A DNA stretch of 64,000 nucleotides, counting the filler, from Stramenopiles sp. TOSAG23-2 (taxonomy: Eukaryota): assembly GCA_900128395.1 (NCBI GenBank). It is 9 parts of 9 records of this genome, joined end to end, with 100 filler letters (N's around TTAATTAATTAA, not from the genome) between each part and the next. Parts side by side here need not be neighbours in the genome. Positions count along the whole stretch, not along the records: positions 17,484 to 26,107 come from LT650180.1; 8 more parts are not named here. One strand, written 5' to 3'. Below are positions 1 to 42,185 of this stretch, piece after piece. How positions within the stretch are numbered: the stretch's first letter is position 1; every line of letters begins with the position of its first letter. The notes below the pieces were generated by a model. The model had not been told where the DNA came from, searched no databases, and saw only the letters and a list, made by a program, of their open reading frames with translations. The translations under genes were made by a program, and so were the position numbers.

Positions 1-120
1 TCCAAAAATTCATGATTTTCGTAGAATATAGGAATTATAATGCACGAGGTTTGATGGTAAAATATGTGTTATTTATACTTATTAGTATACTAAAAATTTA
101 TTTGTCCCTTGGAATCTCTC

Positions 121-348
121 AGTAAAGCTCTAATGCACCTCTGCAAACGAATACGATCGTACTCTACAAGCATGAGTAGGTTTCTATTCTTCCGCGCGTA
201 CTCGTTGAACGCGCTGGACGTCGGGTTCATTCGAAAACGGTGAGGTTGTCGAAGTGAAAGATCCTGTTGTGAACAACAACGGTAACTATCCGGATAAAGA
301 TCTTGAAGTGCACGGTTGTGGCAAAAAGCCGCGGTTTTGATCACTTTA
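121..348. repeat. ~230-bp GC-richer dispersed repeat, copy 1
   Basis: Near-identical to 7984-8227 (AGTAAAGCTCTAATGCACCTCTGCAAAC ... GCCGCGGTTTTGATCACTTTA), same orientation. Confidence 0.9.
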
Positions 349-526
349 GCTTGTAGATTTCTACAAGTTTCATTGACCCATTGTGCTTTATGCCAGTCTA
401 ATTTTCGCTAATTAATATATGATATATGCATACATGATATTTTATACAAGCCAAAAAATTTTATAGTGTGTGCGTGTATTTTTCTTTATCTTTCATTTCG
501 TGGGTGTCTCTTTCTTAAACTCCCTC

Positions 527-2875: not shown

Positions 2876-3596
2876 ATTTTAACGATTGGTAAAATAATAT
2901 AAAAATTAAAATGGCAAATTAAAAAACAAAAAAGAGATCTAAATTTGTTGTGGGTTCACATGGATTGATTTATATATATAAAAGTAATTTCGTTTATTTT
3001 TCGGCACCACTACTACAAGTATAAAGTATTAGTTCTGTGTGATGTATTATATTTTAGTTGGTGGTGATTATTATTGAAATTATTAATATTTTGAATTATT
3101 TGTATTATTAAATTATTATGATGCCGTATTAGTATTAGACTAGGAGCAACCAGGATATACCTCGGAATATATTGATGCTGGTGGGCCATTCTTCTGCACA
3201 GATGACGACAAAAGTATCACATCCTTAATAAATTTAAAATATTCATAGGAATAGTATATGAATACGTATTTAAATAAGTGCATTAAAAATTAAAAATAGT
3301 ATTAGTCTATCGTCTTGGTCCGTGGACTACTATTTCTATTGTTTTTTATTATTATTATTATTATATATTATTTCATTATTAATGTGCTAAATTCCTCTTC
3401 TATTATTATTATTTTACTATTATTATTATTGTGCTATTTCATATTATTACTATTATTATTATTATTATTATATTATTTATATATAGATCTGTATGTATTA
3501 TATAATAAATATATATATAGATGTATAACATAAATGCATAGATAATGTAGGAATCGAAATTAAATTACTTCAAAATAGGGTACTCTTGTCATACAA

Positions 3597-8227: not shown

Positions 8228-8544
8228 TCATAATAATGATGATTAAAATCTAAGTTATAATAATTTTACTTCCCTTTATCATATAAATAAAAAAAATATT
8301 ATTACGCGTTGTATTTTAATTTTTCCTATTTCTACGAGTACACTACCAGGACTACCCATGACAATTGCTACTCTCTCAAAAGAATACGGTGACTTAGACT
8401 GAGCCAATATCAAGATACGATTTTATACTTTTAATATATGATATTATATACGTTCGTATGATATTATCATATATATATATATATGTAAGTAAAAGAACTT
8501 TATATAAATTATGAGTAAGAGAAAATTTATATATATATAAAATA

Positions 8545-8656
8545 TAAAATATAATTTATTTTTAATGTACTCATGATAATTCCTACTCTTAAAAAGAATA
8601 CAATAACTGAAATAATCTATCTCACACAAGTGTGTTGATATTCTCATAATCGAAAA
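8545..8656 (-). repeat. AT-rich dispersed repeat family (GAGTAGGAATTATCATGAGTA core)
   Basis: Reverse complement is near-identical to 24502-24610. Confidence 0.85.
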
Positions 8657-11454: not shown

Positions 11455-12468
11455 TTACATAATACTGCATGAATCGCTCGTTTTACCTGCTTTTTTTACA
11501 TTCTCTGGTGCATCCAATGTACTTGATACTAAACCAGATCCTTTTGTTCTATCAATTTTTCCATCGGAGCGTAATAAATAAGATGCATGGTTCCCTGCAC
11601 ATACGTTGATATATTTTTGACTTGGTGGTGGATTCATTGTTTGTCCAACTTTAACACCTTTTGTAATTCGATCAACTGCGCCATCACTGCGAAGTAAATA
11701 GGTAGCATGTTGACAAGTAGAACCAGATACATATTTAACACCATTCATAGCGCAGTTCACGGTTCCAGCTAGTCCTGTTTTTTGATCACCAAAAGTTATC
11801 ATATATTTATCTGCTGCACCATCTGAACGAATAAAATAAATTTGATTTGGGTTTGTATCCACTTTGTCCGTAGTTATTCCCATTGAAAATTTTGTCATTT
11901 TTACATATTTAATGCTATCATCATTGCAATTTAATGATCCATTAATTTTGCCTTTACCTGATGAATAATCTACAACACCATCATCTCGTAAAAAAAATGA
12001 ACGACTACGTCCTGCCACGACTTGGGTATATCTTGCCTTTGGTGGTGAATCCATCGTTAATTCAACTTTACCTCCTCCTGTTGTTCGATCTACTTTGCCA
12101 TCATCACGCAAAAAATATGATGCAAATTGTCCTGAGGACATTTGCGTATATTTCACTTTTGGTGGGGGAGCAATTTCAGAGTGGATGCCTTTATTGACAG
12201 CTCTTACAATTACACCATCATCTCTTAACAAATAACTTGCATAATTACCTGCAGATGCATCAATGTATTGTGTCTTTGGAGCAGGTTCGTATTGTACAAC
12301 GAATTCGTTAGATCTTCCATGATCAACAGCACCGTTGGAATTAAGTGCAAGTATATGATATTCACATGAGTCTATAAAAGTATAAAATGTATCTTTTACT
12401 AGAATAGCTTCTACAACTATTGCGTCTGGTGCATCATTATTATCATTTGTTGTTACTAAGCTTGCCAT
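11455..12468 (-). CDS. RCC1/BLIP-II-like repeat protein with C-terminal CaaX
   Basis: ~43-aa repeats of the form YxxxSxGxxASYxLRxDGxVDR; ends in CSIM. Confidence 0.78.
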   Translation of the reverse strand: MASLVTTNDNNDAPDAIVVEAILVKDTFYTFIDSCEYHILALNSNGAVDHGRSNEFVVQYEPAPKTQYIDASAGNYASYLLRDDGVIVRAVNKGIHSEIAPPPKVKYTQMSSGQFASYFLRDDGKVDRTTGGGKVELTMDSPPKARYTQVVAGRSRSFFLRDDGVVDYSSGKGKINGSLNCNDDSIKYVKMTKFSMGITTDKVDTNPNQIYFIRSDGAADKYMITFGDQKTGLAGTVNCAMNGVKYVSGSTCQHATYLLRSDGAVDRITKGVKVGQTMNPPPSQKYINVCAGNHASYLLRSDGKIDRTKGSGLVSSTLDAPENVKKAGKTSDSCSIM

Positions 12469-17383: not shown

Positions 17384-18190
17384 NNNNNNNNNNNNNNNNN
17401 NNNNNNNNNNNNNNNNNNNNNNNNNNNTTAATTAATTAANNNNNNNNNNNNNNNNNNNNNNNNNNNNNNNNNNNNNNNNNNNNTTGCACATAATATTAAT
17501 GTTGCAAAAAATGAGTGGAGATATTAAAATTGTACCTAACATGTACGTACAATATTCGTAGATTAATATATGTATTGTGCACGCGTATGTAATGAAATAA
17601 GATGAGATACATACGGCGGTACCACATTATTTTATTGTTTTTTTATTTAAATTTTTGTTTTATACGCGTATATAGATATGCATAAAAAATTATTTGTTGT
17701 TTCAATAAAGGATTTGCACATTTCGTGTATAAAAATTACTGTATGTTGATGGATGTCTATAATTTTATTAATACCACCATAACCTCACATCATTATTTAC
17801 TTTAAATATACTGTAACATCATAGATCAATATTAACTACAATATACGAAGTATTTATTATAATATTAATACTTCAATACACACTAACACTTCTGTGTGGT
17901 ATTAAAATTAAAATACAACAACGACACAACAAGCACACAACGACTCGACTGTATTTTTTTACGACACATTATTTATAATATTAATATTATTAATACCTGC
18001 TGTTTAGCTACTAATCATAACACACCAGTCACTAGATCGGTTTTCCGTTAAGGAAATTGCCTGACAACACAACATATTTTTGAAAATTCGTTATTTGTTA
18101 GCATTAAAGCCCTATTTTACAATACATAAAAAATATACTTAACCTAGGCACCTAGGTATCAGGTATCAACGAGAAATGAAACCGAGGTGT

Positions 18191-18697
18191 CCAAAATGTG
18201 CATTTACCAGCAGTCGTCCAGCAGTCTTTTTTTTAAGATCCAAAATAATAATAATTAATAATTGCACAATTCATATATATTATTATTATTGTGTAGTCTA
18301 TTTGTAATATTTAGATATACTGTATATCTATATATCTAAATATCACACCAAAATGTGCATTTACCAGCAGTCGTCCAGCAGTCTTTTTTTTAAGATCCAA
18401 AAAAAAATAATAATAATTAATAATTGCACAATAATTCATATATATTATATTATTATTATTGTGTAGTCTATTTGTAATATTTAGATATACTGTATATCTA
18501 TATATCTAAATATCACATGTCCTCGTATATGTATTTCAACACTTTAGTATATTTAATATGATAGTATACTGCATCAAAATGTAGTCTATTTGTAATATTT
18601 AGATATACTGTATATCTATATATCTAAATATCACATGTCCTCGTATATGTATTTCAACACTTTAGTATATTTAATATGATAGTATACTGCATCAAAA
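18191..18697. repeat. Overlapping tandem duplications (~160-bp unit x2, ~118-bp unit x2)
   Basis: CCAAAATGTGCATTTACCAGCAGTCG at 18191 and 18348; TGTAGTCTATTTGTAATATTTAGATATAC three times. Confidence 0.9.
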
Positions 18698-18703
18698 GTT
18701 ATA

Positions 18704-19969
18704 ATGTTATACAATGATAGCAATGCAACATCCATCAATGATAGAAGTATATCTAGATGCCCAGACCAAAACAGTATGACAATTTGTCCAGGCGCTAATA
18801 TAAATGAAACAGTACATGAAAACTTAATGGCAACGATACCTGAAGCTTATATGTGTTGGAAATATTTATTATTGGCAATATTTATGATTTTGGCTATTAT
18901 TTGTGTTAAATACATCGTAATATTTATCGGCGTTACCTATAGGAAGTATATGAAGCAGCAAAAAGGTAATCGTAATAGAAGGGGTGGATCAAAAAATTAT
19001 TCATTATTACATTTTATTTTTACTAAAACGTTCTTCAAATTGGCAATGATATTTGTAATAACTATCTTAAGATTTATATGGCTTTTAGATCCACATGCAA
19101 ATTCAAAAACGACTATACCAGGAGCGTTGTTTGGCAGAAAAGCACAAATACACGAACCAACGACCATGCCTTTGCTAACTGTGCCACAGTTGAGCTTCAT
19201 TTTGGTATTAATACTAGAAATAAATTCTTGGAAGCAAGTAGTAGATGCAAGCAAAAATTTACGACGAATGGAAAATACTTTTTGTAACATAAATAATTTA
19301 AAAATTGCTTTGTTTATATTTCCATTATTTGTTGTCATTGTCATCATTTTGGGTTGTAGTTTTGTAGGGCATACTGTATGGCAAAATCCAAATAGCGTTT
19401 GCCATTCAATCTGGAGTGTGTACTTTTTGATATTTCTTCTTTATATTATATGTTTAACGATTGGGGGATTTTATTATGCGCATAAGCTATTTCATATGAT
19501 AAAATTTATGGTAATATCATTTAAGCATCAACGAAAACAAAATCAAAATATACATGATAAAAGTGATGGCATCACAAGGAAAAAAGACAAATATTTAAAT
19601 AAAACTCGACGAATTTTCAAAGCCGTGGTCGTTCTTAGTCTTCTTGGAACATTGCTTATTTCTATGTTTATATTCCGCCAATTTGTTAATGTTTGTTGTG
19701 ACAAAGATCAAATAGATTCCAATATTCGTTATTTAATCTATATCACCGTGATACATTTTTCTGAATTTGGATTATTATGTGCTATTTTAAATTCAGTAAA
19801 AGTGATTGATTACGAGTCGAAAAGTCATCAAAGTGGAACGCATATACAGCTTTTTTCGAAAACAACTGGAATTGCTAGTAGCAATAGCGAAGAAGTTGTA
19901 TCAATAACAAACCCATTAAATAACAAAAGAAATAAAAATATGGCGAATAATCATGTAATGAGAATGTAG
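18704..19969 (+). CDS. Seven-TM membrane protein (GPCR-like, possibly TOM1/GPR137-type)
   Basis: About seven hydrophobic helices, N-terminal N-glycosylation sequons, basic loops; family assignment uncertain. Confidence 0.6.
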   Translation: MLYNDSNATSINDRSISRCPDQNSMTICPGANINETVHENLMATIPEAYMCWKYLLLAIFMILAIICVKYIVIFIGVTYRKYMKQQKGNRNRRGGSKNYSLLHFIFTKTFFKLAMIFVITILRFIWLLDPHANSKTTIPGALFGRKAQIHEPTTMPLLTVPQLSFILVLILEINSWKQVVDASKNLRRMENTFCNINNLKIALFIFPLFVVIVIILGCSFVGHTVWQNPNSVCHSIWSVYFLIFLLYIICLTIGGFYYAHKLFHMIKFMVISFKHQRKQNQNIHDKSDGITRKKDKYLNKTRRIFKAVVVLSLLGTLLISMFIFRQFVNVCCDKDQIDSNIRYLIYITVIHFSEFGLLCAILNSVKVIDYESKSHQSGTHIQLFSKTTGIASSNSEEVVSITNPLNNKRNKNMANNHVMRM

Positions 19970-20345
19970 TTGTTGCTTTTGACAGAAGATTATAAAATCA
20001 CTAGAAAAGAAGAAAAGTGCGTAAAAATTTAATATTTTAGCCCTCGTAAATAATACGTTCTCGTATATAATTTGTTTTTATTATATTATGATACGGAAAG
20101 TATGATATGATACCTGTGGTATTATCTGGTATATTTTATAAAGTAAAAAAAACTTTTTTCCTCTCTCTGAAAAGAACATCTCTACAGCATTTTCTGTATT
20201 TGAAAGATTTAAAACTTTATGTGAAAATCTAATTCATTAACTTTCATCGCATCTCCATTACAATTTAATCGTGTCTCTCTAAACAAACTGTTTACACTCA
20301 GCTGTTCTCAGGTTTTTGATATATATAGTATTGATACATGCAATT

Positions 20346-21866
20346 TTATAGATTAGAGACTGCAGCTTGATACGTCTCGAGCAATTTGGCAACGTAACCA
20401 TCAACTGTTTCTCTTGTTGTTGATGCGTCACTTCCCTCCATAAATTTAACAAAGTTTTCAATTGCAGCTTTTACTACTGGTTCATCACGATTTGCAGTTG
20501 CTGCAAGAAATAATTGTCTTGGGGTCGTTGTTGCAAACCCACGTCCTGGTGTAAACATTCCTGATGGATTTCCACTTCGCAAAAAGGTGAACATTCCACC
20601 AACCATATCATAGACTGTAGCTATCGAGCCAGGGGATGTATCTGTTTTGTAACAATCACGGTAATAATTTAATTTGCTACCTAGAAGTCCAGGAGTGGAA
20701 TAAAAGTAAACTAAAAAGTTAAAGCATGCGGCAGACCATTCAACAGACCCAGCATCTGAAACGTTCATATCAAGCATGGTCCATAAATTCCATTTCCAAA
20801 ACCATACGCGTGGTACATTTTTGACTGAATTCAAAGCTGGTATCATGTCTGCAAATTTGTTGTCCAATTGACTTTTCCAACTACTATTTGGATTATCTGC
20901 AACCTCGCACATTGCATGGTAATAAAACATTACAAGTTTTGCCGTACTTTGATTTGGAAGTGTTTGTTGCTGATTGGTTGCTAATCTTCTCAAAGCAACG
21001 CGTGCAGATAGATGTTCTCTTTGCATCAATCGACCAGCAATTTGATTGAAAATGTATACTGCTTGTCTTGCTGGGTCATCATTGCCAATCCATCCAGGCC
21101 CAAAATTGATACCAAGAACAGCATTTGTCTTTTTCATCCAATAAAGTACTTGTGGATAATCACGGAAACGATAAAAATACTTAATGATTGTATCTTGATT
21201 ACCACCATGTAATTGTGAAAGCGATGAATACGCAAAACCTGCATTGGCGCCTTCAAAAAAAGGTGCAAATGCCGCTCTTGCAGCATCTATACCTTCTTTA
21301 GAACGATAAGCTGCACCTGCTTTTTTAGCGATATCTTTATTTTGGGAATAAAAATTAAACATCGATCTTGCTAAGATTCCAAGTGTATCTGGATTGTCAT
21401 ACGTGGCATTCCAACGAATACCGGTCAATTGAAACCATTTAATAAATACCATACGAATGTCATAACTATAATTAGCATATTTCATTGCGTATTCCGTAAA
21501 TTTTGCAGGGTTATGAGCAAAACGACCAATAGCTGTGTTTCTGTCGAACGAGTCAATAGTTGTCCTCCAATAATTTAAAATGTTGTCTTGGGTAGCAAAA
21601 CCAAAACCATCTGGATTCAGAATCATCCTGGCCATAGCAAGATTACCAGGCTTTTTGGCATATCGATTGTTCAGCATATGAATAAACGCACCCCAAAATT
21701 GAGGCGAATCAATACTTGTATCAGGACTCAATGGTACATCAATACCATCCACATATGGAGATGGTGGTGGACCAGTAGTGGAAGGGTTTGATTGGTATAA
21801 GAATTCAGCAATACTTCTTGCTCTTGCATGCTGATCAGCGGGTTGTCCATCTGCTCTTGTTGCCAT
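20346..21866 (-). CDS. Uncharacterised 506-aa helical-repeat protein, paralogue A, ends SNL
   Basis: Long ORF with full-length colinear similarity to 22533-24068. Confidence 0.9.
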   Translation of the reverse strand: MATRADGQPADQHARARSIAEFLYQSNPSTTGPPPSPYVDGIDVPLSPDTSIDSPQFWGAFIHMLNNRYAKKPGNLAMARMILNPDGFGFATQDNILNYWRTTIDSFDRNTAIGRFAHNPAKFTEYAMKYANYSYDIRMVFIKWFQLTGIRWNATYDNPDTLGILARSMFNFYSQNKDIAKKAGAAYRSKEGIDAARAAFAPFFEGANAGFAYSSLSQLHGGNQDTIIKYFYRFRDYPQVLYWMKKTNAVLGINFGPGWIGNDDPARQAVYIFNQIAGRLMQREHLSARVALRRLATNQQQTLPNQSTAKLVMFYYHAMCEVADNPNSSWKSQLDNKFADMIPALNSVKNVPRVWFWKWNLWTMLDMNVSDAGSVEWSAACFNFLVYFYSTPGLLGSKLNYYRDCYKTDTSPGSIATVYDMVGGMFTFLRSGNPSGMFTPGRGFATTTPRQLFLAATANRDEPVVKAAIENFVKFMEGSDASTTRETVDGYVAKLLETYQAAVSNL

Positions 21867-22532
21867 CTTTTCTTACTCTTTCTTTTTTTGACTTATACTT
21901 TTGTTAGCCTTAAATTTTGAATTTATTCTTTGAAGTTGATTTTGAAATGTTTCTTTTTCTTATCTTTCTTTTTCTATATAATACTTGATTTTCTTTGGAT
22001 ATTCTGCATTCTTTTTTTCGTGCTCTTTTGTGGATGAGTTATATAGTGTGTATTAGTCTATATGTATTATTGTATTATAATTTTTTAAATTATAGCAACT
22101 TCTTGCTATATTGCTGCATTACAAAATTACAAAATATCTTTCACCAATTTTTTGTAATTCGTAGTTATAGTCTACCTGGTATGATATGTATTAATACCGG
22201 ATTTAGCCAAGCCTTGGGCAAGCCCTGGGCAAGCTCTTGGTTTGATCACCACACATCAGTCTTACACCCGGATTGGCTTTGGTATAGCATGCAAATACCA
22301 TTATGGTTTGTTAATGTGAATCAAAATTCACAACAACAACATCATTAGCAGTTGCATTATAATAATTAATAATTGAACCAACAAAATTAAAATCTATATA
22401 TATATATATCTGTATATATACTTTGTTGGGTAAAACAAAAGATAATACATTTTGTACAACAAATATCGGCAAAAAAAAACCAACAAGATTCAAAACATAC
22501 AAAAACACGAAAAATTAAGAAACAAAACAAAA
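21867..22532. promoter_or_regulatory. Putative bidirectional promoter of the paralogue pair
   Basis: 666 bp between divergent ATGs; central GC-rich core 22197-22280 with repeated CAAGCC(T/C)TGGG. Confidence 0.55.
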
Positions 22533-24068
22533 ATGGCGACAAGAGAAGACGGTGCACCAATGGACCAACATGAAAGAGCAAAAGGCATTGCACAATCTAT
22601 TTTCGAAGGTACACGTTACCGACAACCTGCTGCATCTCCATATGTCGCTGGGCAACCAATATCGGGAATTTCCAAGATGACTGTCGATTCGCCTGAATTT
22701 TTCGGGGCTTATATTCACAATTTAAATTGTTTATATGAGCAAAGTCCAGGCAATATTCAATTAGCACGAGTAATCTTGCAACCTGATGGGTTTGGATATG
22801 TTAGCCAGGACCGTGTTATGGAATATTGGAGGACGAGTCTTGACATATCTCCAGCGGACTCCAATACAGGGCGTTTTGCTCATAATCCAGCAAAATTTGT
22901 TGAATACTTATACAAATATATGAATTACAATTATGATAATCGCATGGTCTTTATTAAATTTTGTCAATTACTGGGCATTCGATGGAACACGGTATACAAC
23001 ACACCAGAACAGATTGAAAATTTGTGGCGTAGTATGTGTGGCTTCTACAGCACCGGGCCTGGGAAAGATATTGCAAAAGAAGTCGGTGCTAAATATAACA
23101 AGCTAAATAAAGGGGATACTGGGCTTCAAGCCGTTGAAGCAGTATTCCGTCCCTTTCTTGATGCAATAAACGTTGGTTTTGCATATTCAAGCTTAAGTCA
23201 ACTTCATGGTGAAAATTTTAGTGTTATATTTAAGTACATGTACGCTTTCCGTGACTATCCAGGTGTACTATATTGGTCAAGAAAATTAAACAGTATTCTC
23301 GGAACGGCTTTTGGTCCTGGTTGGATTGGGGATGATCCAGCGAGAAATGCTGTATACATTTTCAACCAAATGTTGGGCAGGCTAAGCCAGCGTGAAAACT
23401 TGCCAGCAGCTGTCGCGTTAAAACGATTGGCTTTGAATCCTAATTTGACACAACCGAATCAAAGCACGCCAAAGCTTGTGTTGTTTTATTACCATGCTAT
23501 GTGTGAATGCGCGGAGCATCCAAATTCTGGTTGGCAACAATTGATGGATACAAAATTTGAAGGCATGTTTGAAGCTCTCAACGAGGTACAATGGAATCCA
23601 CGTGTTTTCTTTTGGAAATTTTTCTTGTATCAAATGCTTGATTTAAGAATGACTGGTACTGGCACATCTCCTGAATGGGCTGCATTGCAATTTGACTTTA
23701 TGGTATATTGCTATTCCAAACCAGGAATTTGTGGTGCCAACCTTGAATATTACAAAGATTGCATTAAAGTGGATCCATCGCCGGGACAATTGGCAACATT
23801 TTATGATATGTATTCAGGCGTCATGGCTTACATGAGAAAATTGTCTCCAAATTCATTATTTACACCTGGTAAAGGATTAGCAAGTGTTACACCACGGCCA
23901 ATGATTATTTTAGCCGCTTCAATGCGAGACAATCCAATAGTTCAAGCTGCTATGGATAGATACCAAAAGTTTATGGGTGTAGAAGGAGACAATACTAGCA
24001 AACAAGACGTTGATAAATATGTTGCCAAAATACAAGAAAATTATCTTGCTTCAATGTCAAATCTTTAA
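22533..24068 (+). CDS. Uncharacterised 511-aa helical-repeat protein, paralogue B, ends SNL
   Basis: ATG at 22533 (MATREDG) aligns with MATRADG of paralogue A, so it is preferred over the TTG at 22452. Confidence 0.9.
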   Translation: MATREDGAPMDQHERAKGIAQSIFEGTRYRQPAASPYVAGQPISGISKMTVDSPEFFGAYIHNLNCLYEQSPGNIQLARVILQPDGFGYVSQDRVMEYWRTSLDISPADSNTGRFAHNPAKFVEYLYKYMNYNYDNRMVFIKFCQLLGIRWNTVYNTPEQIENLWRSMCGFYSTGPGKDIAKEVGAKYNKLNKGDTGLQAVEAVFRPFLDAINVGFAYSSLSQLHGENFSVIFKYMYAFRDYPGVLYWSRKLNSILGTAFGPGWIGDDPARNAVYIFNQMLGRLSQRENLPAAVALKRLALNPNLTQPNQSTPKLVLFYYHAMCECAEHPNSGWQQLMDTKFEGMFEALNEVQWNPRVFFWKFFLYQMLDLRMTGTGTSPEWAALQFDFMVYCYSKPGICGANLEYYKDCIKVDPSPGQLATFYDMYSGVMAYMRKLSPNSLFTPGKGLASVTPRPMIILAASMRDNPIVQAAMDRYQKFMGVEGDNTSKQDVDKYVAKIQENYLASMSNL

Positions 24069-24111
24069 AACAAAAGAGAACAAAAACGTTTATGGAGAAT
24101 ATTATATATTG

Positions 24112-24622
24112 TATCAACACCCTACTAGTGGTGTGAGATAGATATTTAAAACTGCCTCTCAGTCATTGTATTCTTTTGAAAAGAGTAGGAATTATCATGA
24201 ATAAAATTAAAAGATATGAATAATTGCGTAAATTAAATTTTATTGAAGGGAAGAGAGAAGATAAAAGAAAAGCTCTAAACACAAATAAGAATAAATTTTT
24301 CAATATGATATTTATAAGAGAGAGTGTTTTTTTTATTATATTAATAAAAAAATATATAAAAAATATTTTCACACTCGCGCTTTATTTTTTATTTAAACAT
24401 ATCTTTTCTATGGATTAATCATATTTGATTATATGCTAACATATATATATAATATATGAGTAAGAGAATATTTTTTATATTATATTTTACCTTCATTGGT
24501 ATTTTCGATTATGAGAATATCAACACACTTGTGTGAGATAGATTATTTCAGTTATTTTATTCTTTTGAAGAGTAGGAATTATCATGAGTACTTTAAAAAT
24601 AAATTATGCGTAAATTAAATTA
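24112..24622 (+). repeat. Two copies of the AT-rich dispersed repeat (24112-24240, 24502-24622)
   Basis: Both contain TATCAACAC..GTGTGAGATAGAT, ATTCTTTTGAA(AA)GAGTAGGAATTATCATGA and TGCGTAAATTAAATT. Confidence 0.85.
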
Positions 24623-24658
24623 TATATTTAATATATATAATATATATATGATATGATA

Positions 24659-25042
24659 TTATATTTCATTTTGTTTGATCAATGTGTACAAGCGAAGAGA
24701 TTGATTACCATCATCTAAAGAAGCTGGAGTTGTGTACGTACAATTATGTGAGTGATTGAAAAAAGTATCAAACATTTCGTCGCGACAAACTGTCAAACAT
24801 TCCCTCATATATTCATCTGGTGAAACTTTTGTTATTTCAAAGGCAGCAACATTCATAGCCATCACACACCCCAACGTAAAGATAAAGAACAAAGCCGATA
24901 CACATATGATTATTTTTATTTTTTTAACATGCCCTTCTGCTTTTTCCGCCCTTTCCTCTGCTTCTATTTGTAGTGATAAAATTTCGAGTAGCGATATTGT
25001 TCCAGAACCGCTCCTTAGATCAAAATTATTAAGATCATGCAT
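24659..25042 (-). CDS. Small protein or gene remnant with degenerate EF-hand-like motif and one TM helix
   Basis: DLRSGSGTISLLEI followed by hydrophobic IIIICVSALFFIFTLGCVMAM; may be a pseudogene. Confidence 0.4.
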   Translation of the reverse strand: MHDLNNFDLRSGSGTISLLEILSLQIEAEERAEKAEGHVKKIKIIICVSALFFIFTLGCVMAMNVAAFEITKVSPDEYMRECLTVCRDEMFDTFFNHSHNCTYTTPASLDDGNQSLRLYTLIKQNEI

Positions 25043-25764
25043 GACCCTTTTGATATGACGAGAAATTTAATTTAACAACTGTGTTTTCTCCCCTCAATTC
25101 AATATGTTTAATATTCACGTCCATTTTTCAATATTTAATTTGGACGGAGACTTCGCAAGTTACATTCAATGCAATCTAAACAGTACAAATTTTTATTGAA
25201 AGTAAAAACGACACATGTATATATACTTGATGGTATTAAAATATTTTGAAAAATGTATAATTGTATTAATTCAAATTTAATCTGGTAATATAGATAAATA
25301 TATACAGAATATAATAGAATTAGAATATACTATACATATAATATATATATGTGACAATAATAATAATAGACTATAGCTATATTTTATATTATAATTTTTT
25401 TTATTTTATTATTTATTTATTATTCCATATATTTTTCTTTCATTTAAAAAATATCCCCAATTTATCTTTTTGTCCTTAAAATAGCAGGTGATTACAATTA
25501 CATATGTACTTAGTACACGACGAAAAAGAACAAAATAAATATCTTTTTTTTCATGCATCACCATCATTTATATTATTATCAGAGATGTGTGTGTACAAGA
25601 TTACGCAGAACAGTATGTACAATTTAACGCGTAACTCTATTTACATTACATGTTACATGTATTATATAAAATGTTCTCTTACTCATATATTATATAAATT
25701 TCTTTTACTCCCGTTCATTAACATCTCAAACCAAAAATGATATTTATAAAGTTTAGTAAATTAT

Positions 25765-26107
25765 TTAATATTCAAAAGATTCTTCCTCTGTCTGTGATTT
25801 ACAGTTAGGTGAAGAAGCTACTCCTTCATAAAGTTGTAAATCACCTTCTTTAATCAATCTAAATGTTTTTGTATCGTCGTTATCCAACTTAACTTTTAAT
25901 TTTCCATCCTTACGTGAGGTCGCCTCAATAACTGTCCCTCTACTTCCTTGTTTAAATGTTGCATTACCTGTTGTATAGTCCTTCGTTAATTGTATTTCGC
26001 GCCCAACAATGCTCATGACATCCTGAGTCTCTTCAATATTCAGAGAGTACATGACAATACACTATTGTATGGTTCTACAACTGCGGTTGCTACTTGTGGG
26101 GATGGGT
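25765..26107 (-). pseudogene. Alpha-tubulin-like fragment out of frame with a 95-aa SH3-barrel-like ORF
   Basis: 26105-26040 translates as [21 protein letters not shown]; ORF 26052-25765 is in another frame. Confidence 0.55.
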
Positions 26108-26207: not shown

Positions 26208-26290
26208 AGTTATTGTATTCTTTTGAAGAGTAGGAATTATCATGAGAGTAAATTAAAACAATTAAATTATGAGTAAAATTAAAAATTATA
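26208..26290 (+). repeat. AT-rich dispersed repeat family copy at contig start
   Basis: AGTTATTGTATTCTTTTGAAGAGTAGGAATTATCATGAG. Confidence 0.85.
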
Positions 26291-28897: not shown

Positions 28898-29827
28898 TTA
28901 GTTGATAGAATTTAAAACACTACGACATTTAACTTCATGCTCAAATAATGTTTTAAAAATAGAATCTTCATCCCGTAATTGGACAATACGTTTTGGCACA
29001 ATTCCCGATGCAGGAAATGGTTTGATTGGACTTCCACTTATGGTATCACTATCTTCCTCATCTGCTTGATAACTCATAATATTAATACTGTTATTATCAG
29101 TTGCACAGTGGTTATTATTATTATTATTATTATTATGATTCATTTTAATATATCTATTATTAATATGGTTATAATTATTATTCTTTTGTTGTTTCATTTC
29201 ATTTCTATTATGGTTTTGTTGACGATTAAATAATTTACGATTTACAATTGCACCTGGTACTAAGGCATTATTTGAGGTATTTGGTGCGACATGTCGTAAT
29301 TGCAATATTTGCTTACGATTACTATTCATAGCAGCACCATTATTACCGTTATTATTATCGTTGTTGTTGTTATAATATTGATTCATCCAATTTTTTTCCA
29401 AGTGTGGACTAGGTGGTGGTGGAGATCTGACTTTAATAGCCATTTTGTCCAAACCATTGGCGATGTCACGTATAAATCGTTTATTTTCTAGACGACCACC
29501 GGCTTCTGACCTTGATTTTCGTTTATGACTATTATTACTATTCCTAGTAAGTATAGGCGATGCGGAGGAAAACGATGCACGTATACCATGGCTTGGAAAA
29601 GTTTTGCTAGGTGTAGGATAGTTTGGGAACATGGTTGCTTCAGAGTCATCCATAATAATAGATGATTGGTGACCATAAATATCACTATCATCATTTTTTT
29701 CTTGTTGCATAAAAGAAACCCTTTCCATTTTATTTGGACTTGAACGTGGAGTCGAATTTGATTTTACCATATATTGCCGCCCACTATTACTATTACTATT
29801 ATTATTATTGTTGTATACAAAATTCAT
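28898..29827 (-). CDS. Asn/Ser-rich low-complexity hypothetical protein
   Basis: 309-aa ORF, no recognisable domain. Confidence 0.6.
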   Translation of the reverse strand: MNFVYNNNNNSNSNSGRQYMVKSNSTPRSSPNKMERVSFMQQEKNDDSDIYGHQSSIIMDDSEATMFPNYPTPSKTFPSHGIRASFSSASPILTRNSNNSHKRKSRSEAGGRLENKRFIRDIANGLDKMAIKVRSPPPPSPHLEKNWMNQYYNNNNDNNNGNNGAAMNSNRKQILQLRHVAPNTSNNALVPGAIVNRKLFNRQQNHNRNEMKQQKNNNYNHINNRYIKMNHNNNNNNNNHCATDNNSINIMSYQADEEDSDTISGSPIKPFPASGIVPKRIVQLRDEDSIFKTLFEHEVKCRSVLNSIN

Positions 29828-30585: not shown

Positions 30586-32256
30586 CTACATTAAAGTGCA
30601 ACAACCATTATTAAATCCTTGTGTAGGTGCTTTACTACTTTCAAGGTTTTTCCATTCTATCTCAATTTCACAAGATAAACGACTTTCTAATACTTTACCA
30701 TATAATACTATAGGAGCGTTATCAATTTTAATAGTTTGTTTCTTCCCTGTTTGCAAATCTTTCACATATTCCTTTAAATGTAAACAAACACCTCCTAATT
30801 CATCATCCGCATCCAAACTGTCATAATCCCAAAATCCCATAAACAAGACAACATTACTTAGTTCCTCAACAGTTTTGCATCTTGTACTTAACGTCGGTAA
30901 ATCGTGATCATTAAAAGTTGGATTTAGATTGGCAGTTTTGTATGAGCTATTTAACTTTTTCAATTTGTTTTTTGGCATAACTAAAGTGTTTCCTGGATAC
31001 ATCCTAAATTGTAAATATGGATCAGAACTACCACCAATATCAGATGCAGTTAATTTAATTCCATCTACTTTTTTAATATTTAAATGTGCAACGTTTTTTG
31101 TAGTATCCATCTCATACGACGGTGTTTTAACAAAATTTATCTTATAAACACCTCGTATAGGTTTATGGTCACTAGTTGAAACATTTATCAGCGGCTGTAC
31201 TTGTTCTGGCACGACCGTATCATTACCAAAACATGCTTGACTTCGCCAAAGTATACGATCACAATATGATGGGGCACGTTGTTCTTTGTAATCAATCCCT
31301 TTCACACGTTGCACTTTGAACGTTGGCGTATATGTTATAGGCGCTTCCGTAAAGTTATGAAATATTTTCCCAGCCTTTTGTTCCCTTTTCAATTGGTCTG
31401 CTTTAAGCAATTCACCATATTTTTTCCCATCAACTAACTTTTTCACTTCCTCCCAGTGTTTCTTATGACCGTCACCTTTCTTTGGTGGCATCGGTTCGCC
31501 ACGTGCAGTATTTAAATCAACGCGATAATTTAAATCACCCATCCAAAATACATAATCATGTTGAACAAATGCATCCATATCTTTATCTCCTGTGCGTGCC
31601 TCGGCTAATATTTCCCAAATGTTTTCATTTCTTTTACTAAAATGTTTTAAATGAGCAGCAAGGTGAGATGAAATAAAGGCCAATGAATATCCTTTGTAAA
31701 TAAATGAGGTTAAAATACCACCTTTATTTGCCATGATATGTCCAAGACCAGTACATGATGTTGCACTTTCAACATTTGTAATATCTTTTGCAATCGCTTC
31801 TTTTGCAAATACGAACAATCTCATTTCTCCTAAATCGGTACATGCTATTGCTTTAAATCCACATTTTTTTGTATGATTTTCGTACAAATTTTGGAAGTGC
31901 ACCAGGGATTTATTTTCAAATAAGTTGCTAACCTTCGTGCCTATTCCAACTTCTTTAGATTTTTGCTTTTTATATTCCTTCATTTGTTCTGCCTGTTTCT
32001 CTTCAGACAGCGATTCATTTTTAAGCTCAGGCTCTTCTGTCACGTCTTTTAACTCCTCATCTGGTACTGGAGCATACACCGCCTCTTGTGAGCCACACAC
32101 TATTAAATCAACATTTTCTAGCTCTTTTTCTGTTCCAAGTAACATCGGTATTTCAGCAAGTTTTGGCTGTGCATTACCAACATTCCAAGTTAATATTGCT
32201 ACTCTTAAACTTTCACCACCATTAACTGTCACATTAATATTTTCCGTAGAAGTCAT
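30586..32256 (-). CDS. Inositol polyphosphate 5-phosphatase with C2 domain and CaaX box
   Basis: TWNVGN, GSQE, NKGG, FWMGDLNYRV, PSYCDRILW, SDHKPI; C2 motifs SDIGGSSDPY and WDYDSLDADDELG; ends CCTLM. Confidence 0.92.
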   Translation of the reverse strand: MTSTENINVTVNGGESLRVAILTWNVGNAQPKLAEIPMLLGTEKELENVDLIVCGSQEAVYAPVPDEELKDVTEEPELKNESLSEEKQAEQMKEYKKQKSKEVGIGTKVSNLFENKSLVHFQNLYENHTKKCGFKAIACTDLGEMRLFVFAKEAIAKDITNVESATSCTGLGHIMANKGGILTSFIYKGYSLAFISSHLAAHLKHFSKRNENIWEILAEARTGDKDMDAFVQHDYVFWMGDLNYRVDLNTARGEPMPPKKGDGHKKHWEEVKKLVDGKKYGELLKADQLKREQKAGKIFHNFTEAPITYTPTFKVQRVKGIDYKEQRAPSYCDRILWRSQACFGNDTVVPEQVQPLINVSTSDHKPIRGVYKINFVKTPSYEMDTTKNVAHLNIKKVDGIKLTASDIGGSSDPYLQFRMYPGNTLVMPKNKLKKLNSSYKTANLNPTFNDHDLPTLSTRCKTVEELSNVVLFMGFWDYDSLDADDELGGVCLHLKEYVKDLQTGKKQTIKIDNAPIVLYGKVLESRLSCEIEIEWKNLESSKAPTQGFNNGCCTLM

Positions 32257-35205: not shown

Positions 35206-38200
35206 CTAGGTACAATTGCACATCATCATGCGACAAGAAGAACATGATGAATGCACGTTTGACCTTCTGTAACGTTTAATTGGTCTAGGATTTGGTAGAT
35301 TTACGTTGTTGTTATTGGCATTCGTATCAATAATCATTGGCACTTGTATTCCGGTAGTATCACGTGGTAATTGCACCAGGTTTGGTGCAGTTGGGTTAGT
35401 GGATTGTGTAGACGCTTTGTTACTTGTTGTTGCTGTACCAGAATCATGGGTATTACTTTGTGTTTGGACTTGGTTTGGTGCAGTTGGATTAGTCGATTGC
35501 GTAGATGATCCGTTAGGTGTTGTTGTGTTAGCAGAATCATGGGCAAATTGAAACCACGGAAGAAGCATCTTCATTAAATCAGATCGTTGTAAACCATACA
35601 CAGCTTCACCTAACATTTTACCAATGTCTTTCAACTCCTCGGTTTCGAGTTCACCTAGCGATTCCAACGACTGGAGCCTTTGCACAATGTCATCGACATC
35701 CACCATACCATCTTTCCACGTACCATGTTCATCGTAATTGTTTTTCCATTTGGTAACAGTTGGTGGATAGGAAAGCTTCGTTAAATATTCAAACTGTTCG
35801 TCAGTGCCGGGTAATTTTGCAAGGTACCTACCTGCAATAACACGGGATAAAGCTACGTACAGATGTGCAAGACGGATTATCGACAAGTGGAACCCAGGAA
35901 CATTTGCAATGGAAAGGATAACACAGGGCAGTGTCATGCCTTGGCACTTATTCATCGTGAACGAAAACCCCAAGCATACTTCCATTCGGCGGACGGGGTC
36001 GTTCTTTTTGTATTTTTTGGAATAAGTAGCGCAATATATAAAGCCTTGTTTGTTTATTTTTGTAATTTTTGCTTTCTTATATCCTTTCCACTTTTGGAGT
36101 GTGCTGTGATTCTTTAAAAAAAGGTCGCTCCACAAGACATACACAATATCGTTTACATGATGGTTTGGGTTCATTTGTCGTTCCAGGTTGGAATTGGTCA
36201 CGGTCAATTTGGACTTGCCAATTTGTACTTCAAGCTCACCATCGATAAAAACATGGATGTACCTTGGCTGTGGGAGTGTGAGGACATGAAAGCCGTCTGT
36301 TGGTGCTTCATCGTATATTTTGTCAACCAAGGCATCAAATTCCGGAGGAAAAGTTAGACTGTAATAACGACATGGTTGTCCATTTGCTAAAACGGTGGAT
36401 TTGCTCTTTTTGGATTTAACATTTCCCGTTAGAATTCCAGGCGCACCGTGTACGAAGTAAGATGAAAAGCCTTTACGCTTGTTGTCTATTTCCTGGTTTC
36501 TCGAGGTTGGCGGAATCCCGGCTTTGTTGATCTCTTCGTACCCCCCACTAGCCAGGCGATGCGGGTTGTAAAATTTGATCACTCTGATGCCGGCTTTCTT
36601 CCCCATTTGCAACGCACGTTTTTCATTCCAGAAATGCCTTTCATTGTTGGTACTGACCAATACAGGTGCAAGCTCGAAGGCAGGATTATCCTGTACCAAC
36701 TGTTCGGTATAATCTTGAATGCCGCGAATACGTTGCATAGTAATTGGGTTTTGTACGGTGGAAAACGATTCAATGAAAGCTGTGTGCTCTGGATCAGAAC
36801 TTGAACGAACTTGCTGAGTCAAGAACTTTGCAGTAAACTGCTTAAAGAGTATAGCTCCAGCAAGCGACGACAGCTTTAATTCTGCACTACGTTGAGCACT
36901 TAACTTTTGAGACACGCATAATTGCACCATGGCAGTGTTCAAGCTTGCGGCACCGATAGGAGGTATTTGATTGAAGTCCCCAAGGACAATAAAATGTTTC
37001 CCCAAAAACGGTTTATCAACGTCCAGGTGGGGTAGGGAATTGTTGCTATTTTCAACTCGGTACATGTTCAAAGCTTCTTTTAGGTGGTCATGAATCTGAG
37101 CAAAATGACGAGCACTAGTCATGCTAACTTCATCCATTATTAATAGATCTACTGTCTCCAATATTGGGTACAGCACCTTGAGATGATTGGCGTTTTTTCT
37201 TTTGTGAGGCAAATCGATGGAAAATGTTGTATGCATAGTTTCACCAGATTTGTCTCCTATATGCATCAATACTGCAGCACTCCCTTGCAACGCGCATCCT
37301 TTAACACCCATGTTCAATCGCTTTAAAACCCGATCGACAATTTTGCGTTGCAAATACGTTTTTCCAGTACCAGGCCCACCATTGATTAGACACAATAGTT
37401 GTTCCCCGCTGCTTAATGTCTTCAGGCAATATTTGAACGTGACACATTGATCATGGAAATTATCCAACTCGGGTGGTGGTTTTTCCACAGGATCTGAGAA
37501 CTCAGAGCTATCGCGATCAATGCGTGGCAATGCAATGTTGCCATCCGCCTTCTCCATCAATTCAGTTAACATATTTTCCGCCAGTTTAACGGAAATGCGA
37601 TTTTTATAATTAACTTTGCGAGAGTGTTTGGAACAAGATTTCGGAAGTGGTGGGGTTTTAACAACATTTAAAAAATCAGTGATATCATTCAGACGTTTGT
37701 GGTATAAGTACTGCTTCCGATACTTTCTCTGGTTCGTCGGATCAATTGCATCCTGGGTCATGTTTTGTTCATGCTGTGCCTTCAATTGAGCATTGGTATA
37801 GTCATCGTTTGATGTTCGTTTTTTCAACTTAACAGGAACTTCATCCGGGTCCATTTCCTTCCATGGAACTGTGGCGCGGGAACGGTATTTCAATTGAATT
37901 TTTCGTTGGATTGGCCGGGTACACATTCCACGAGTCATATTGTTGTACACGTGCCATCGGCCAATGTTGTGTATTTTATGCACAGTTAAACAGTGTGTGC
38001 AAGGACCAGTTTCTGCGGCGGATGGGCAGTCGGCAATTTTATGTAGCTCCTGGTTCATGTTTGCAACGTAATCGTTTTTCCAGCCTTCAACTATGGCACA
38101 AAACCCGTTCCAACTATGGCCAAGTTCCCATTGCGCCTCAATGAAAGGATCTCTCTCTCCTTCCCCCACTACTCCGCATGGTAGTAAGATAGCAGAAAAA

Positions 38201-41200
38201 TATTGAGCGAATACTAAGCGGCGATTTTCAAAGGCAGTTTTGGTTTCAGAGGCTTTTTTAATTGGATATGGAGGACGGTGCCGCCCGATTCGAAGTGGGG
38301 CTACAAACTTTGAGCGAACTTGCTGTATTTTCATTTTATGTTCCTTGTACGATGGACGGAAATAAAACACGGGGTTTTTTTTGCGCCCGCTGGTATTTGC
38401 TGGTGGTACAATATCATCGTCGGTCACTGGTTTTTCATTTTTGTACATGTTGCGTACCAAGATCGTTCCACAGTACGTGTACAAATCCAAATGCTGCAAA
38501 GCATCTCCTCGGTATAACCAATGTTCATATTGGGATGACGTAATAACTGTGTTATTTTCATTGATCCCAATTGATCGCAGACCCCGTGTTGTTCTTTGCG
38601 ATGCACGGACGTAGTCATCATGTTCAACACGGTCAATGTCAACGTCTTCGTCCTCATCGTTATCAACGGTTGCAGGTTTATTAAGCGATGCATGGTTATC
38701 GCTGGATCCAACGTCATTCTCGTCACTTGAATTCGTTGCAGGAAAATCAATTGGATCAAATGCACATGCTACTGGTACTCCTTCTTCGTCGGGAGGTACA
38801 TTTTTTCCTACATCATCGTGGAGGTTGTAATGATACTGATTGTCTGTCCGTGTTATTATCTTGTGCTTGGGGAAATGGGCCCATTCCTTTTGCTGGCGAA
38901 TTTGATCGACGGCTTGCCAAGCAAACAAATAAAACGGCTCGATTGTTAGGTAATGTGCATCCATACCAAGTACTGAGGCGGCCATTTGCTCTGCAGACAT
39001 TTCCGTTGCATTCACCATAGAATTGGTTAACTTTTGCAGAAGGTACAGTGCATTTCGTTTCTCCTCTCCAGCATCTTTTGCTGTGCTTTGCTTAATATCC
39101 ATGCTTTGACGCGCAGACAGGCACATATTCAGCGTATGTGGTGTATCTTGCTTCTTGGAGCTTTTGGTGGTGCTGTAGTTGGTTAGATACATCATTACTG
39201 CTTTGGCTTGCGTCTCGTCGCCCAAACATGTTGCATCAATATTATCACCCAATAACCCATGTGCAATTTTATTGTGGGAGACTACTTTTTGGTCCTTCTC
39301 TGTTGGACGACATGTATCCAATACCAGAGCTGTTGTATCCTTGGGTGGTAATGCCTCGTCTGGTTTAAAATCTAAATTTAGCTCTGATATACTGGGAGAA
39401 TGGAAAGCCAAATTGCTATCGACGTCACAAATAATTTCATCGCCAGTGGTACTAACAAAGATAAGGGACCCATCCTTTTTCAATTTCAATTCCACTTCTT
39501 TAAAACCAGTCTTTGCTGCTACAGCTCTGAGATAGGCCATGCGACATTGATAGTGTCCCATTTTGCCGTGTAAACATGTATGTGTATGTCGATGCATGAT
39601 TTTTTGGGCACATTGATCGCCTCTACGTTTGACACACAAGAGCAGCAGCTTGGTTTTTAGCGCATCAATTTTTTGTACATGTTCTTGTACATCGTTTCTT
39701 TTTTGTTTAATTTCACGTTTGAAGCGTTGCTTGGAATTGTTAATCTTATTGCGCATGGTTTGGCGGTCATCTTGTGGACGATGGGTTTGCACATTCATTG
39801 GATGATGCACCTGCGTAGCAATAAATAGAGCACGTCCATTGGTAGTATCTTCGTGATCTTCATGTGTTTGGGTTGGGTTTTGTTGGTAATCGCTGGTATC
39901 AAAATCTTCAGTATCAGGTACTAAAAAATCGTTGTATTGGTAACTATCTTGAGTTGGATTCGGTTGGTAATCGCTGGTAGCGGAATCTTCTAATGATACG
40001 GTTGATTCCTTACTCGCCCCAGCATGCGCTTTAGCAAGTGCAAAGTCATTGCCTGTGTTATTATTCGTGTCGTGTTCTTCAGTTTCATCTTCATCCGAAC
40101 TTGAAATAATCATATTATAATCATTTGACCGAAACAATCCTTCCATATCAGAATAATCACTATCATCGCTGTCCATTTCAGCACAATCAGCCATTGTTGA
40201 TTTAAGACGAGTATTTACAGCAGAGATGAAGTCATTGACTGTATTATCATTTGGATTGCCATCACCTTGATGAACTAGCATTGTTCTTGCCCGATCTTCG
40301 TCAATTGTAAATAGTTCAAATAGTTCATCTACAACAAATGCATTTTTTATACGTGAAATTTCCTGGGCAGCTGTGTTAATTAAGCTTGAAATCTCGTGGT
40401 CATTACATTGCACCATATAAAATGGATCCGGTACAAAAGTTTCTGTACTTCCAGGTTGCAGCATAGTAGCAGCAGCAGCAGGAGTAGTAGTAGTTGTTGT
40501 TGTCGTCGTTGTGGCTGGTGTATCACTATCTACATCCATTGATACTGATGGCAGCTCAAAATGATGAGTGCAAGGTCCTTTGCCAGCAATATACCCAGGG
40601 CAATTTCCAGCACGATTTACATCTCGAGCGACCAACGCACTATAAATACAGGTTGGGCAATAGTAATAATTGCACTCAGGGCAACAAAGTACATCTGAGT
40701 TTGTGGATAAGCAGTGTCGACACTCTTGGTATTCATTTACAAAAGTTAACAACATTTCCCGGTCGGATTCACCTAACTCACCAGCAAATGATTTTAGTTT
40801 GTCGAAATCTGTAACAACAAACGAATCAACAAACGAATCGCGGCAGACACGAAATCCACAGGTATCGATGTTCACCAGATACCAGTTTTCCAATCGCACC
40901 AATTGCATTTCACGTATACCTGGATCAAACAATTCAGCACGGACCATATGGTTGTTATCAATATGTAGCGATTCGAAGTTGGACTTAACAAAATTCAAAG
41001 CATGCATGAACGTGGACGATGTTGCATATCGTTGATTGGGATTATCAAAATGGCCGCGAAGCTGATCGTTGCGATTCATATCGCTAGGCGGCCGTAAGTG
41101 TGTGGGATTAAATGCTTTCTGTTTCTTCGGGTGCGATGCATCCACCTTTTTTAGCTTCTTCTCAATCTCATCTTGCTCTGATTGCAGTTGCGATTGTTTT

Positions 41201-41258
41201 TCCTTCAATTCAACTAGTCGTTTGGCTGGATCAAATGCCTCAGATTCAGGTTCGGTAA

Positions 41259-41289
<31 letters not shown>

Positions 41290-41754
41290 GTCATGAATTC
41301 CAGCTGTAACATTTGCAATCTCATCTTCTACTTCCACAATCTTTGCCTTTGTCCCTTGGAAACCATGAATCTTCCCATTCAATTGCCTCTTCTCTGCTTT
41401 GATCTCTTTTGTCTTTTTCCCATATTGTTCATACTTGGCATGCACAAGGTGGTCAAACTTTGCAGAGACAGTTTTGTCAATGAATGCGGTGATTTCATTA
41501 CGTTTTGCTTCATCTGCCAGCATTTTCCGTATCAAAGCGACATGTAAGAACGACCATAACAGCACATGAGCGTGGAGAAGACCAGTACCAGTTGCTTCAA
41601 TGACTGCAACATACGCACGTGCATTTCCCCATAATCCTTTTGTTGCTTTAAAATCCATAGTTGTCTTTGATATTGTTGAATATGGCATGCCAAATAAATG
41701 AATAAGTATTGCATCAATGATGATTCGAAACGTCTCTGCGCGTGCAGCGGAATC
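35206..41754 (-). CDS. Helitron Rep/PIF1-family helicase (N-terminally incomplete)
   Basis: HUH motif GLLHAHVLLW, HRHTHTC..CR, Y2-like MMYLTNYSTTK. SF1B helicase motifs GGPGTGKT, MDEVSM, GDFNQIPPI, QQVRS, TMNKCQGMTL, YVALSRV. Frame is open 22 codons upstream of ATG 41688 (DSAARAETFRIIIDAILIHLFG). Confidence 0.92.
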
Positions 41755-42185
41755 TCATGATGCGAGAATTCGTTTATTATGGTTTTTGTTTCTTCTTCAC
41801 TTGGTGGAGGTGGAACTTCATTTTCAATTGCACCAGTGTTTCTATAAAATCGTTCCACTGTCTCACCAATGATACCATATTCATGTATCTTTTCAACGCT
41901 TTCTAATTGTTTTTTGATTTGGCGCAATTTTCTCTGCCGTTCTCTATCTAATTCACGTATATGTTCTTCTTGCTCCTCTATCATTTTCTCTTTCATATCT
42001 TTATCCTTTCTGGCACGTTCTGCTATTTTATTCTTTGTTTTGCGAGTGCGTTGTTTTTGTGGTGTACGTCTCTTCTTGTTATGTTTTGCATGTTGTACAC
42101 GCCGTTTGTCTTTTTCTGCTTTCTCTTTATTTCTTTTCTTCCGTAATGCTTTCTGTGATAAACGTTGTTGTTCCTTTTTATCCAT
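41532..42185 (-). CDS. Basic coiled-coil ORF, probable original N-terminus of the RepHel protein
   Basis: K/R/E-rich helix then VPPPPSEEETKTIINEF; overlaps the RepHel frame out of phase. Confidence 0.55.
   Translation of the reverse strand: MDKKEQQRLSQKALRKKRNKEKAEKDKRRVQHAKHNKKRRTPQKQRTRKTKNKIAERARKDKDMKEKMIEEQEEHIRELDRERQRKLRQIKKQLESVEKIHEYGIIGETVERFYRNTGAIENEVPPPPSEEETKTIINEFSHHEIPLHAQRRFESSLMQYLFIYLACHIQQYQRQLWILKQQKDYGEMHVRMLQSLKQLVLVFSTLMCCYGRSYMSL

Follow-up and report, generated by a model that had tools for sequence, protein, structure and literature searches.

Genes A and B form a head-to-head pair in a stretch of 64,000 nucleotides (nt) of DNA from Stramenopiles sp. TOSAG23-2 (GCA_900128395.1), which is assembled from nine parts joined with filler and is called the window below; the pair lies in the part taken from LT650180.1 (positions 17,484-26,107). 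As inverted tandem paralogues, the two genes belong to a small family of soluble proteins of about 57 kDa, lineage-restricted and found in marine microbial eukaryotes. Both copies are intact and conserved, purifying selection acts on them, and RNA libraries contain them. From the C-terminal tail, the family is predicted to be a lineage-restricted peroxisomal matrix protein, a reading that we hold with a probability of about 0.4. The coding sequences, their terminal codons and the spacer are listed here:

20346-21866, minus strand: coding sequence of gene A, 506 amino acids (aa; P0001), no intron; based on the open reading frame (ORF) and its translation, full-length alignment with homologues, and RNA-run contigs without joints
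22533-24068, plus strand: coding sequence of gene B, 511 aa (P0002), no intron; based on the ORF and its translation and on RNA-run contigs without joints
21867-22532, no strand: intergenic spacer between both start codons, 666 bp, AT-rich
20349-20357, minus strand: codons for the SNL end of A, resembling a type-1 peroxisomal targeting signal (PTS1); family-wide [SA][NS][LM]
24057-24065, plus strand: codons for the SNL end of B, PTS1-like; family-wide [SA][NS][LM]

The tripeptide [SA][NS][LM] stands at the extreme C-terminus of all family types with a complete C-terminus (7 of 7), as SNL in A, B and their relative P0004, SSL in P0005, ANL in P0006/P0008, SNM in P0009 and ANM in P0017. The 25 residues before it are among the least conserved of the protein (mean identity 0.26), and extra residues are found just upstream of it in P0006 (seven) and in P0009/P0017 (three). 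Because the tripeptide is kept behind such a variable, insertion-bearing region, it appears to be tied to the chain end and not to the fold. The same ending was not found among the 17 other window ORF C-termini examined. This conserved tail, which an initial annotation of the locus had missed, is the family's candidate PTS1-like signal, and, judged from sequence, the substitutions that it shows (S/A and L/M) are those that PTS1 tolerates.

The canonical PTS1 consensus is (S/A/C)-(K/R/H)-(L/M), with S or A at -3 and L or M at -1 as classic alternatives (PMC3178647). The tripeptides SNL>, SNM>, SSL> and ANL> are experimentally validated in plants (PMC3427985 Table A1; PMC9542071 Table 1); four of the five family tripeptides therefore stand on plant lists of validated non-canonical signals, with validation data coming from plants and one diatom. 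In P. tricornutum, SSL> targets a thiolase to peroxisomes, and its deletion leaves the protein cytosolic (PMC3178647). Mammalian catalase, as described in the part of PMC7498260 drawn on here, carries an atypical KANL end and is tetrameric in the cytosol before import. PMC3487989 makes no mention of the five family tripeptides. Acidic residues at -6 to -4 are present in none of the seven complete C-termini, and no nonapeptide resembling a type-2 signal (PTS2) was seen at the N-terminus by eye.

According to the peroxisomal reading, [SA][NS][LM] would act as a weak, non-canonical PTS1. The proteins would fold in the cytosol and possibly oligomerise there; the tail would then be bound by PEX5, leading to import into the peroxisome matrix. 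More speculatively, the protein might be an enzyme rather than a scaffold within the matrix, because 19 polar or charged residues, four tyrosines and one tryptophan are invariant in the family down to 27% identity. On this view A and B would be duplicates of the ordinary, subfunctionalised kind and need not be partners. A fuller version is distinctly improbable: A, B and perhaps P0004 would be subunits of a peroxisomal (microbody) enzyme or matrix assembly that is so far undescribed and has a new fold, occurs only in a small group of uncultured marine protists, and enters the organelle already assembled as an oligomer by means of a deliberately weak PTS1.

Several points weigh against a peroxisomal location. 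None of the seven complete C-termini matches the canonical PTS1 consensus, position -2 being N or S and never K, R or H. A 'basic-nonpolar-basic' arrangement across -6 to -4, the strongest enhancer of weak tripeptides in plants (PMC9542071 section 12), is likewise absent from all seven, the contexts being AAV, ASM, NAI, KFT, PSL, TRL and ARI. The tripeptide ANM> is on neither plant list, and the analogy is drawn with plants and one diatom, not with this organism. A conserved tail might instead be packed into the interface of an oligomer. The proposal of an enzyme, for its part, draws solely on the kinds of residue that are conserved, among which no known catalytic motif was recognised.

Over their full length, A and B are identical at 273 of 513 columns in BLASTP (53%, with 69% positives, E = 0, end to end). 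The initial annotation, made from the sequence alone, had described two intact, intronless and colinear genes that diverge from a 666-bp spacer and are roughly half identical; the gene models and the alignment bear this out, and the four blocks that it named as invariant are identical in A and B. At the DNA level the similarity appears as inverted repeats of 62-140 nt with 70-72% identity. The start of B is placed at the ATG at 22533, since the resulting N-terminus, MATR..., is common to A, P0004 and P0011 (it is MANR... in P0005); the ORF lister runs instead to a TTG at 22452, which gives 538 aa. A third copy of the family was sought across the window and was not found, and no repeats flank the pair apart from the coding similarity itself.

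The proteins are unusually rich in aromatic residues, with phenylalanine, tryptophan and tyrosine contributing 14.2% of A and 13.9% of B, the two highest values among the 20 window ORFs (3.1-11.6% in the rest). The highest Kyte-Doolittle mean over 19 residues is 1.02 in A and 0.96 in B, and the two proteins are therefore without a membrane segment; their N-termini are charged and show no signal peptide. Aromatic richness and the lack of a signal peptide or transmembrane segment, both noticed earlier, thus hold. The isoelectric points (pI) are 9.1 for A and 7.95 for B. By a crude estimate from periodicity and propensity, 41% of windows are helix-like and 10% strand-like, values too unreliable to assign a fold class. 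Conservation along the chain is uneven, and three regions are listed here:

21792-21866, minus strand: A residues 1-25, conserved N-terminal segment; mean pairwise column identity 0.48
20892-21041, minus strand: A residues 276-325, where conservation within the family is highest; column identity 0.54-0.58
23370-23519, plus strand: B residues 280-329, counterpart of A 276-325 by alignment (R294 of A corresponds to R298 of B)

Within A 276-325 the invariant residues are G278, R279, Q282, R294, K310, Y315, H317 and E321. The N-terminal segment is followed by a variable Pro/Ser-rich linker (A residues 26-50; mean pairwise column identity 0.25). A conserved segment and a variable linker before the core are also met in arm-exchanging assemblies, and this layout speaks for another explanation, namely an obligate hetero-oligomer or co-polymer built in the cytosol from A and B as subunits; the two would be co-expressed from the spacer that they share, and their conserved termini would serve assembly and not targeting. 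The head-to-head arrangement of the genes points the same way. The charges of the two proteins, however, are not complementary (pI 9.1 and 7.95), and an assembly role for the termini leaves it unexplained that the tail varies only within residues tolerated by PTS1.

RNA contigs of four runs (X15-X18, from three studies) were compared with the locus; X19 and X20, with small shares, were not counted. All four runs contain contigs that cover A and/or B without joints. Gene A is covered by contigs of X15, X17 and X18 together with a 205-nt piece of X16, and gene B by contigs of X15, X16 and X17; that both genes are seen in three of the four runs is compatible with co-expressed subunits. The extents covered are:

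20180-21909, minus strand: gene A, covered by overlapping RNA-library contigs (runs X15 and X18)
22460-24119, plus strand: gene B, covered by RNA-library contigs (runs X15, X16 and X17)

Cover of A reaches at least 43 nt upstream of its ATG and about 166 nt beyond its stop codon; cover of B reaches at least 73 nt upstream of its ATG and 51 nt beyond its stop codon, with positions 22692-22767 open in the pieces listed. The contigs give neither strand nor true transcript ends. As RNA libraries may contain DNA and contig depth cannot rank genes by expression, the contigs support transcription and the absence of introns, not a level of expression. Cover is absent in the middle of the spacer and, in X18, over the whole of B, from which no inference was drawn. 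That both genes lack introns is indicated by the contigs without joints and by the end-to-end alignment of both proteins with homologues. In marine metagenomes and metatranscriptomes, part of the locus was present in 20 of the 24 runs listed, which belong to 13 studies (two of them possibly source DNA), and six further DNA studies contained at least 0.46 of the sampled locus words.

The initial annotation had proposed an old duplication kept under purifying selection and had suggested a dN/dS comparison; its outcome agrees with that proposal. In the codon alignment of A and B, nucleotide identity is 60%, the nonsynonymous rate (dN) is 0.42 and the synonymous rate (dS) about 1.96, close to saturation, for a ratio of about 0.21. 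No gene-conversion tract was found between the copies. Nucleotide identity does not exceed 0.73 in any 30-codon window, and the two genes share no exact run longer than 16 nt, so that gene conversion has not homogenised the copies. The RNA-run contigs hold 19 variants, 12 of which are synonymous and seven are not (11:3 in A, 1:4 in B), and three of the four replacement variants of B sit in low-depth contigs. The G+C content of third codon positions (GC3) and the effective number of codons match those of the neighbouring genes, so that A and B are regarded as native; codon bias is not special, and nothing in it hints at the bulk expression of a structural protein, as might be looked for in a co-polymer.

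A maximum-likelihood tree joins A and B as sisters with moderate support (83/87), followed outwards by P0004 (84/89), by P0005 (96/98), and by P0006 and P0009. The identity of P0004 to A and B is 51-52%, compared with 54% between A and B in the same comparison; as P0004 is nearly as close as A is to B, the A/B duplication thus goes back nearly as far as the divergence from P0004. P0004 may be a third paralogue or the orthologue of a related species. Its roughly equal closeness also counts against a dedicated pair, since the family is then not simply a two-member set. Type pairs with 45-58% identity recur in the deeper branches (P0005/P0011, P0006/P0013 and P0009/P0017). These could be paralogue pairs, which would be compatible with a hetero-oligomer, or merely sister species, which fit equally well.

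The constraint on the two copies is symmetric, with branch lengths of 0.47 and 0.40 and with four (A) and three (B) private deviations from family-conserved columns. Symmetry of this kind would be consistent with obligate partners, but neither copy is degenerate, and neither complementary nor asymmetric divergence was seen. Overall we regard the obligate heterodimer or co-polymer put forward earlier, assembled in the cytosol, as rather unlikely.

Expression from one promoter, the other part of that proposal, finds little in the spacer to recommend it. The window contains six divergent gene pairs; in four, three of which are pairs of unrelated genes, the spacer measures 581-721 bp. A spacing of 666 bp is therefore ordinary in the window, as is the orientation, and neither singles out A and B as partners. 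TATA-like motifs lie 179 nt upstream of the ATG of A and 120-138 nt upstream of the ATG of B. A separate motif near each gene's own end of the spacer may indicate separate promoters, which is weak evidence in AT-rich DNA. The spacer has a G+C-richer island near 22170-22300, with no folding signal (z -0.37 and +0.27), and neither an Rfam family nor a tRNA was matched in the spacer. A doubled octamer in the spacer was discarded as not beyond chance, 11 of 100 shuffles reaching it.

An exhaustive HMMER scan of 1.84 billion representative proteins yielded 13 matches, of which 12 are relatives and one is an artefact (P0014, a translated tandem repeat, which was dropped). Near-full-length relatives are P0005 (45% identity), P0006 (38%) and P0009 (29%); the remaining relatives from the scan are fragments. 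In all, about nine sequence types are distinguished: A, B and P0004; P0005 and P0011; P0006 and P0013; P0009 and P0017. Two members are EukProt gene models and the rest come from ENA assemblies, in which the contigs with full-length members are mostly 1.8-2.4 kb long, about the size of one gene. The rarity of the family rests on the exhaustive scan. Word-index searches returned close relatives only and missed P0005, P0006 and P0009 although these are present in the collection searched, and their counts are thus no evidence of rarity.

P0008 begins with 98 unrelated residues and then follows P0006 with 98% identity from residue 217, and P0008, P0012, P0018, P0020 and other fragments depart from the conserved sequence at differing points or carry an unrelated N-terminal stretch. 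These departures point to introns in other lineages, or to breaks in their assembly; A and B, by contrast, are intronless. The related-locus scan of metagenomes returned a single locus, L001 (JACLAC010001812.1), positions 1-3583 of which consist of scrambled pieces with 87-99% identity to window positions 17484-25269. Stretches of B abut the middle of A with nothing in between, a 418-nt neighbouring piece occurs twice, and the scrambled pieces are followed by an unrelated ORF of 1198 aa with a PCIF1_WW domain. L001 was rejected as a second locus, since it appears to be a chimera assembled from the same species.

The initial annotation recognised no family or domain in A and B, and the database searches agree; a full-length match to a characterised family was sought by sequence and none was found. 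Pfam gave no match for A or B, for nine members at E values up to 10, or domain by domain, the best hits being noise (Lipocalin_10, E 0.041; Reov_VP3_MTase1, E 0.07; and similar). No match was found in NCBIfam, and the best value in PHROGs was E 0.082, with no family assigned. PDB sequences gave no match for P0001, the profile or P0005, with a best E value overall of 0.41; the hits of P0009 and P0006 to interferon-gamma (E 0.61) and SLITRK1 (E 0.41) were set aside as chance matches. The ESM Atlas contains both proteins and shows no feature neighbours for them. Its model of a B variant is unreliable (predicted local distance difference test score, pLDDT, 0.37; predicted template modelling score, pTM, 0.20; best TM-score 0.32, which is meaningless), and the fold matches missing from it therefore say nothing.

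It is quite possible, then, that the family is a very divergent member of a known fold or enzyme superfamily beyond the reach of sequence methods, whatever its location in the cell. The searches were sequence-based or used language models only, about nine sequence types are too few for sensitive profiles, the unreliable Atlas model is silent on the fold, and the many invariant polar residues suggest an active site. This explanation has to be set against the lack of any Pfam match even at permissive E values and domain by domain, of any match in NCBIfam, PHROGs and PDB sequences (with the profile or with four single members), and of any internal repeat in the family protein, for which the best hhalign probability of a duplication was only 26%. 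The novelty of the family, as seen from its sequences, would consist in having no relative by any sequence method and not in a new mechanism, and a fold comparison could still place it in a known superfamily.

An origin by capture of a viral or mobile-element gene, for example one for a capsid or nucleoprotein, with later duplication, was also considered. The tiny and patchy distribution, the lack of cellular relatives and of introns, and a Helitron-like ORF elsewhere in the window would suit such an origin. Two scans of viral contigs with different patterns, however, gave no confirmed locus, and PHROGs gave no match; codon use is native and selection purifying, members are spread over several divergent cellular lineages that include the two EukProt gene models, and the pair has no flanking repeats beyond its coding similarity. 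We consider a captured gene very improbable indeed. Relatives were not found in prokaryotic genome contigs either.

The window as a whole is eukaryotic, as shown by genes for Gpi1, TRAPPC8, MTHFR, an AP mu subunit, a sulfatase, and filamin- and WD40-repeat proteins. It is AT-rich, and its genes read as long uninterrupted ORFs. Seven of its 20 sizeable ORFs have no Pfam match, which makes the description of the pair as the best candidate for an undescribed system too strong. Apart from A and B, four sizeable ORFs without a Pfam match lie at 18704-19969 (plus strand), 28898-29827 (minus), 45175-49734 (minus) and 50418-51497 (plus); among them are a multi-pass membrane protein of 421 aa, whose gene converges with gene A, and a 1519-aa protein that is also without a match among PDB sequences.

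A dispersed intergenic repeat of about 90-110 nt occurs at 24113-24243 (plus), 24518-24625 (plus), about 26208-26290 (plus) and about 8526-8630 (minus). Its four copies have an exact 18-nt core in common (0 such matches expected by chance). A core of 30-40 nt has very high word depth in all four RNA runs, with diverse flanks, and reaches a depth of up to about 1000 in X16, a non-poly(A) library. The repeat gave a sub-threshold Rfam match to a C/D small nucleolar RNA (E 0.38) and no significant fold; it contains one invariant hairpin of nine pairs without covariation, and two of the copies abut runs of N. It may represent an abundant family of small RNA genes or a transcribed mobile element.

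The ORF at 35206-41688 (minus, 2160 aa) matches a PIF1-like helicase (E 4e-17) and Viral_helicase1, and its first 44 residues show a weak match to the end of Helitron_like_N (E 0.021); it is possibly a Helitron-type Rep/helicase with the Rep part cut off or split. An ORF overlapping it upstream (41532-42185) has no Pfam match. The ORF at 62508-63986 (minus) has a G+C content of 46.5% and a GC3 of 0.52, compared with 0.18-0.38 in the others. A run of N breaks the frame, and neither Pfam nor PDB sequences gave a match; it may be foreign or mobile DNA. Two further proteins have distinctive ends: an endonuclease/exonuclease/phosphatase and C2 protein at 30586-32256 (minus) ends in CTLM, and an RCC1-repeat protein at 11455-12468 (minus) ends in CSIM. 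We take both ends to be CaaX-like, which would suggest prenylation.

Among known divergent partner genes, the histone pairs H2A-H2B and H3-H4 encode known partners, and their pairing is conserved across species. A and B are likewise arranged head to head, with a few hundred bases of intergenic DNA in common; their spacing, however, is like that between divergent genes of the window that are unrelated to each other. A second comparison is with the gene atlas of Tara Oceans, in which, according to the part of PMC5785536 drawn on here, 51.2% of the eukaryotic unigenes have no database match and novel families make up 11,431 groups. Like the nGF class of that atlas, as characterised in the same part of it, the family is expressed, has a narrow species range and lacks a match in domain libraries; unlike that class, it is documented here from a genomic locus that carries two paralogues, for which selection has been measured, and it has a candidate targeting signal. 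With seven of 20 window ORFs lacking a Pfam match and with the proportion given in that part of the atlas, a conserved family that cannot be assigned is what one commonly meets in such organisms. This family stands out by being very small in a very large database, by being strongly constrained and by having a candidate targeting signal. Were the tail not a signal, the pair would be one more conserved orphan family.

The closest likeness is to matrix proteins with a weak PTS1, such as mammalian catalase (-KANL), P. tricornutum's 3-ketoacyl-CoA thiolase (-SSL) and plant proteins ending in SNL>, SNM>, ANL> or SSL>. The family differs from these in that it has no sequence relation to them, carries nothing basic at -2 and lacks a strong upstream enhancer. 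It resembles them in having S or A at -3, L or M at -1 and, between these, a residue that is small and polar, in being soluble and without an N-terminal signal, and in keeping its tail across divergent homologues. The resemblance is one of likely targeting and not of family membership. If the tail is a working PTS1, A and B would be a lineage-specific component added to the peroxisome of abundant, uncultured ocean protists, in which the content of this organelle is known only by homology to model species. Conserved non-canonical tails could then be used to flag organelle proteins among the marine eukaryotic genes without annotation, which amount to about half by the figures in the part of PMC5785536 referred to above.

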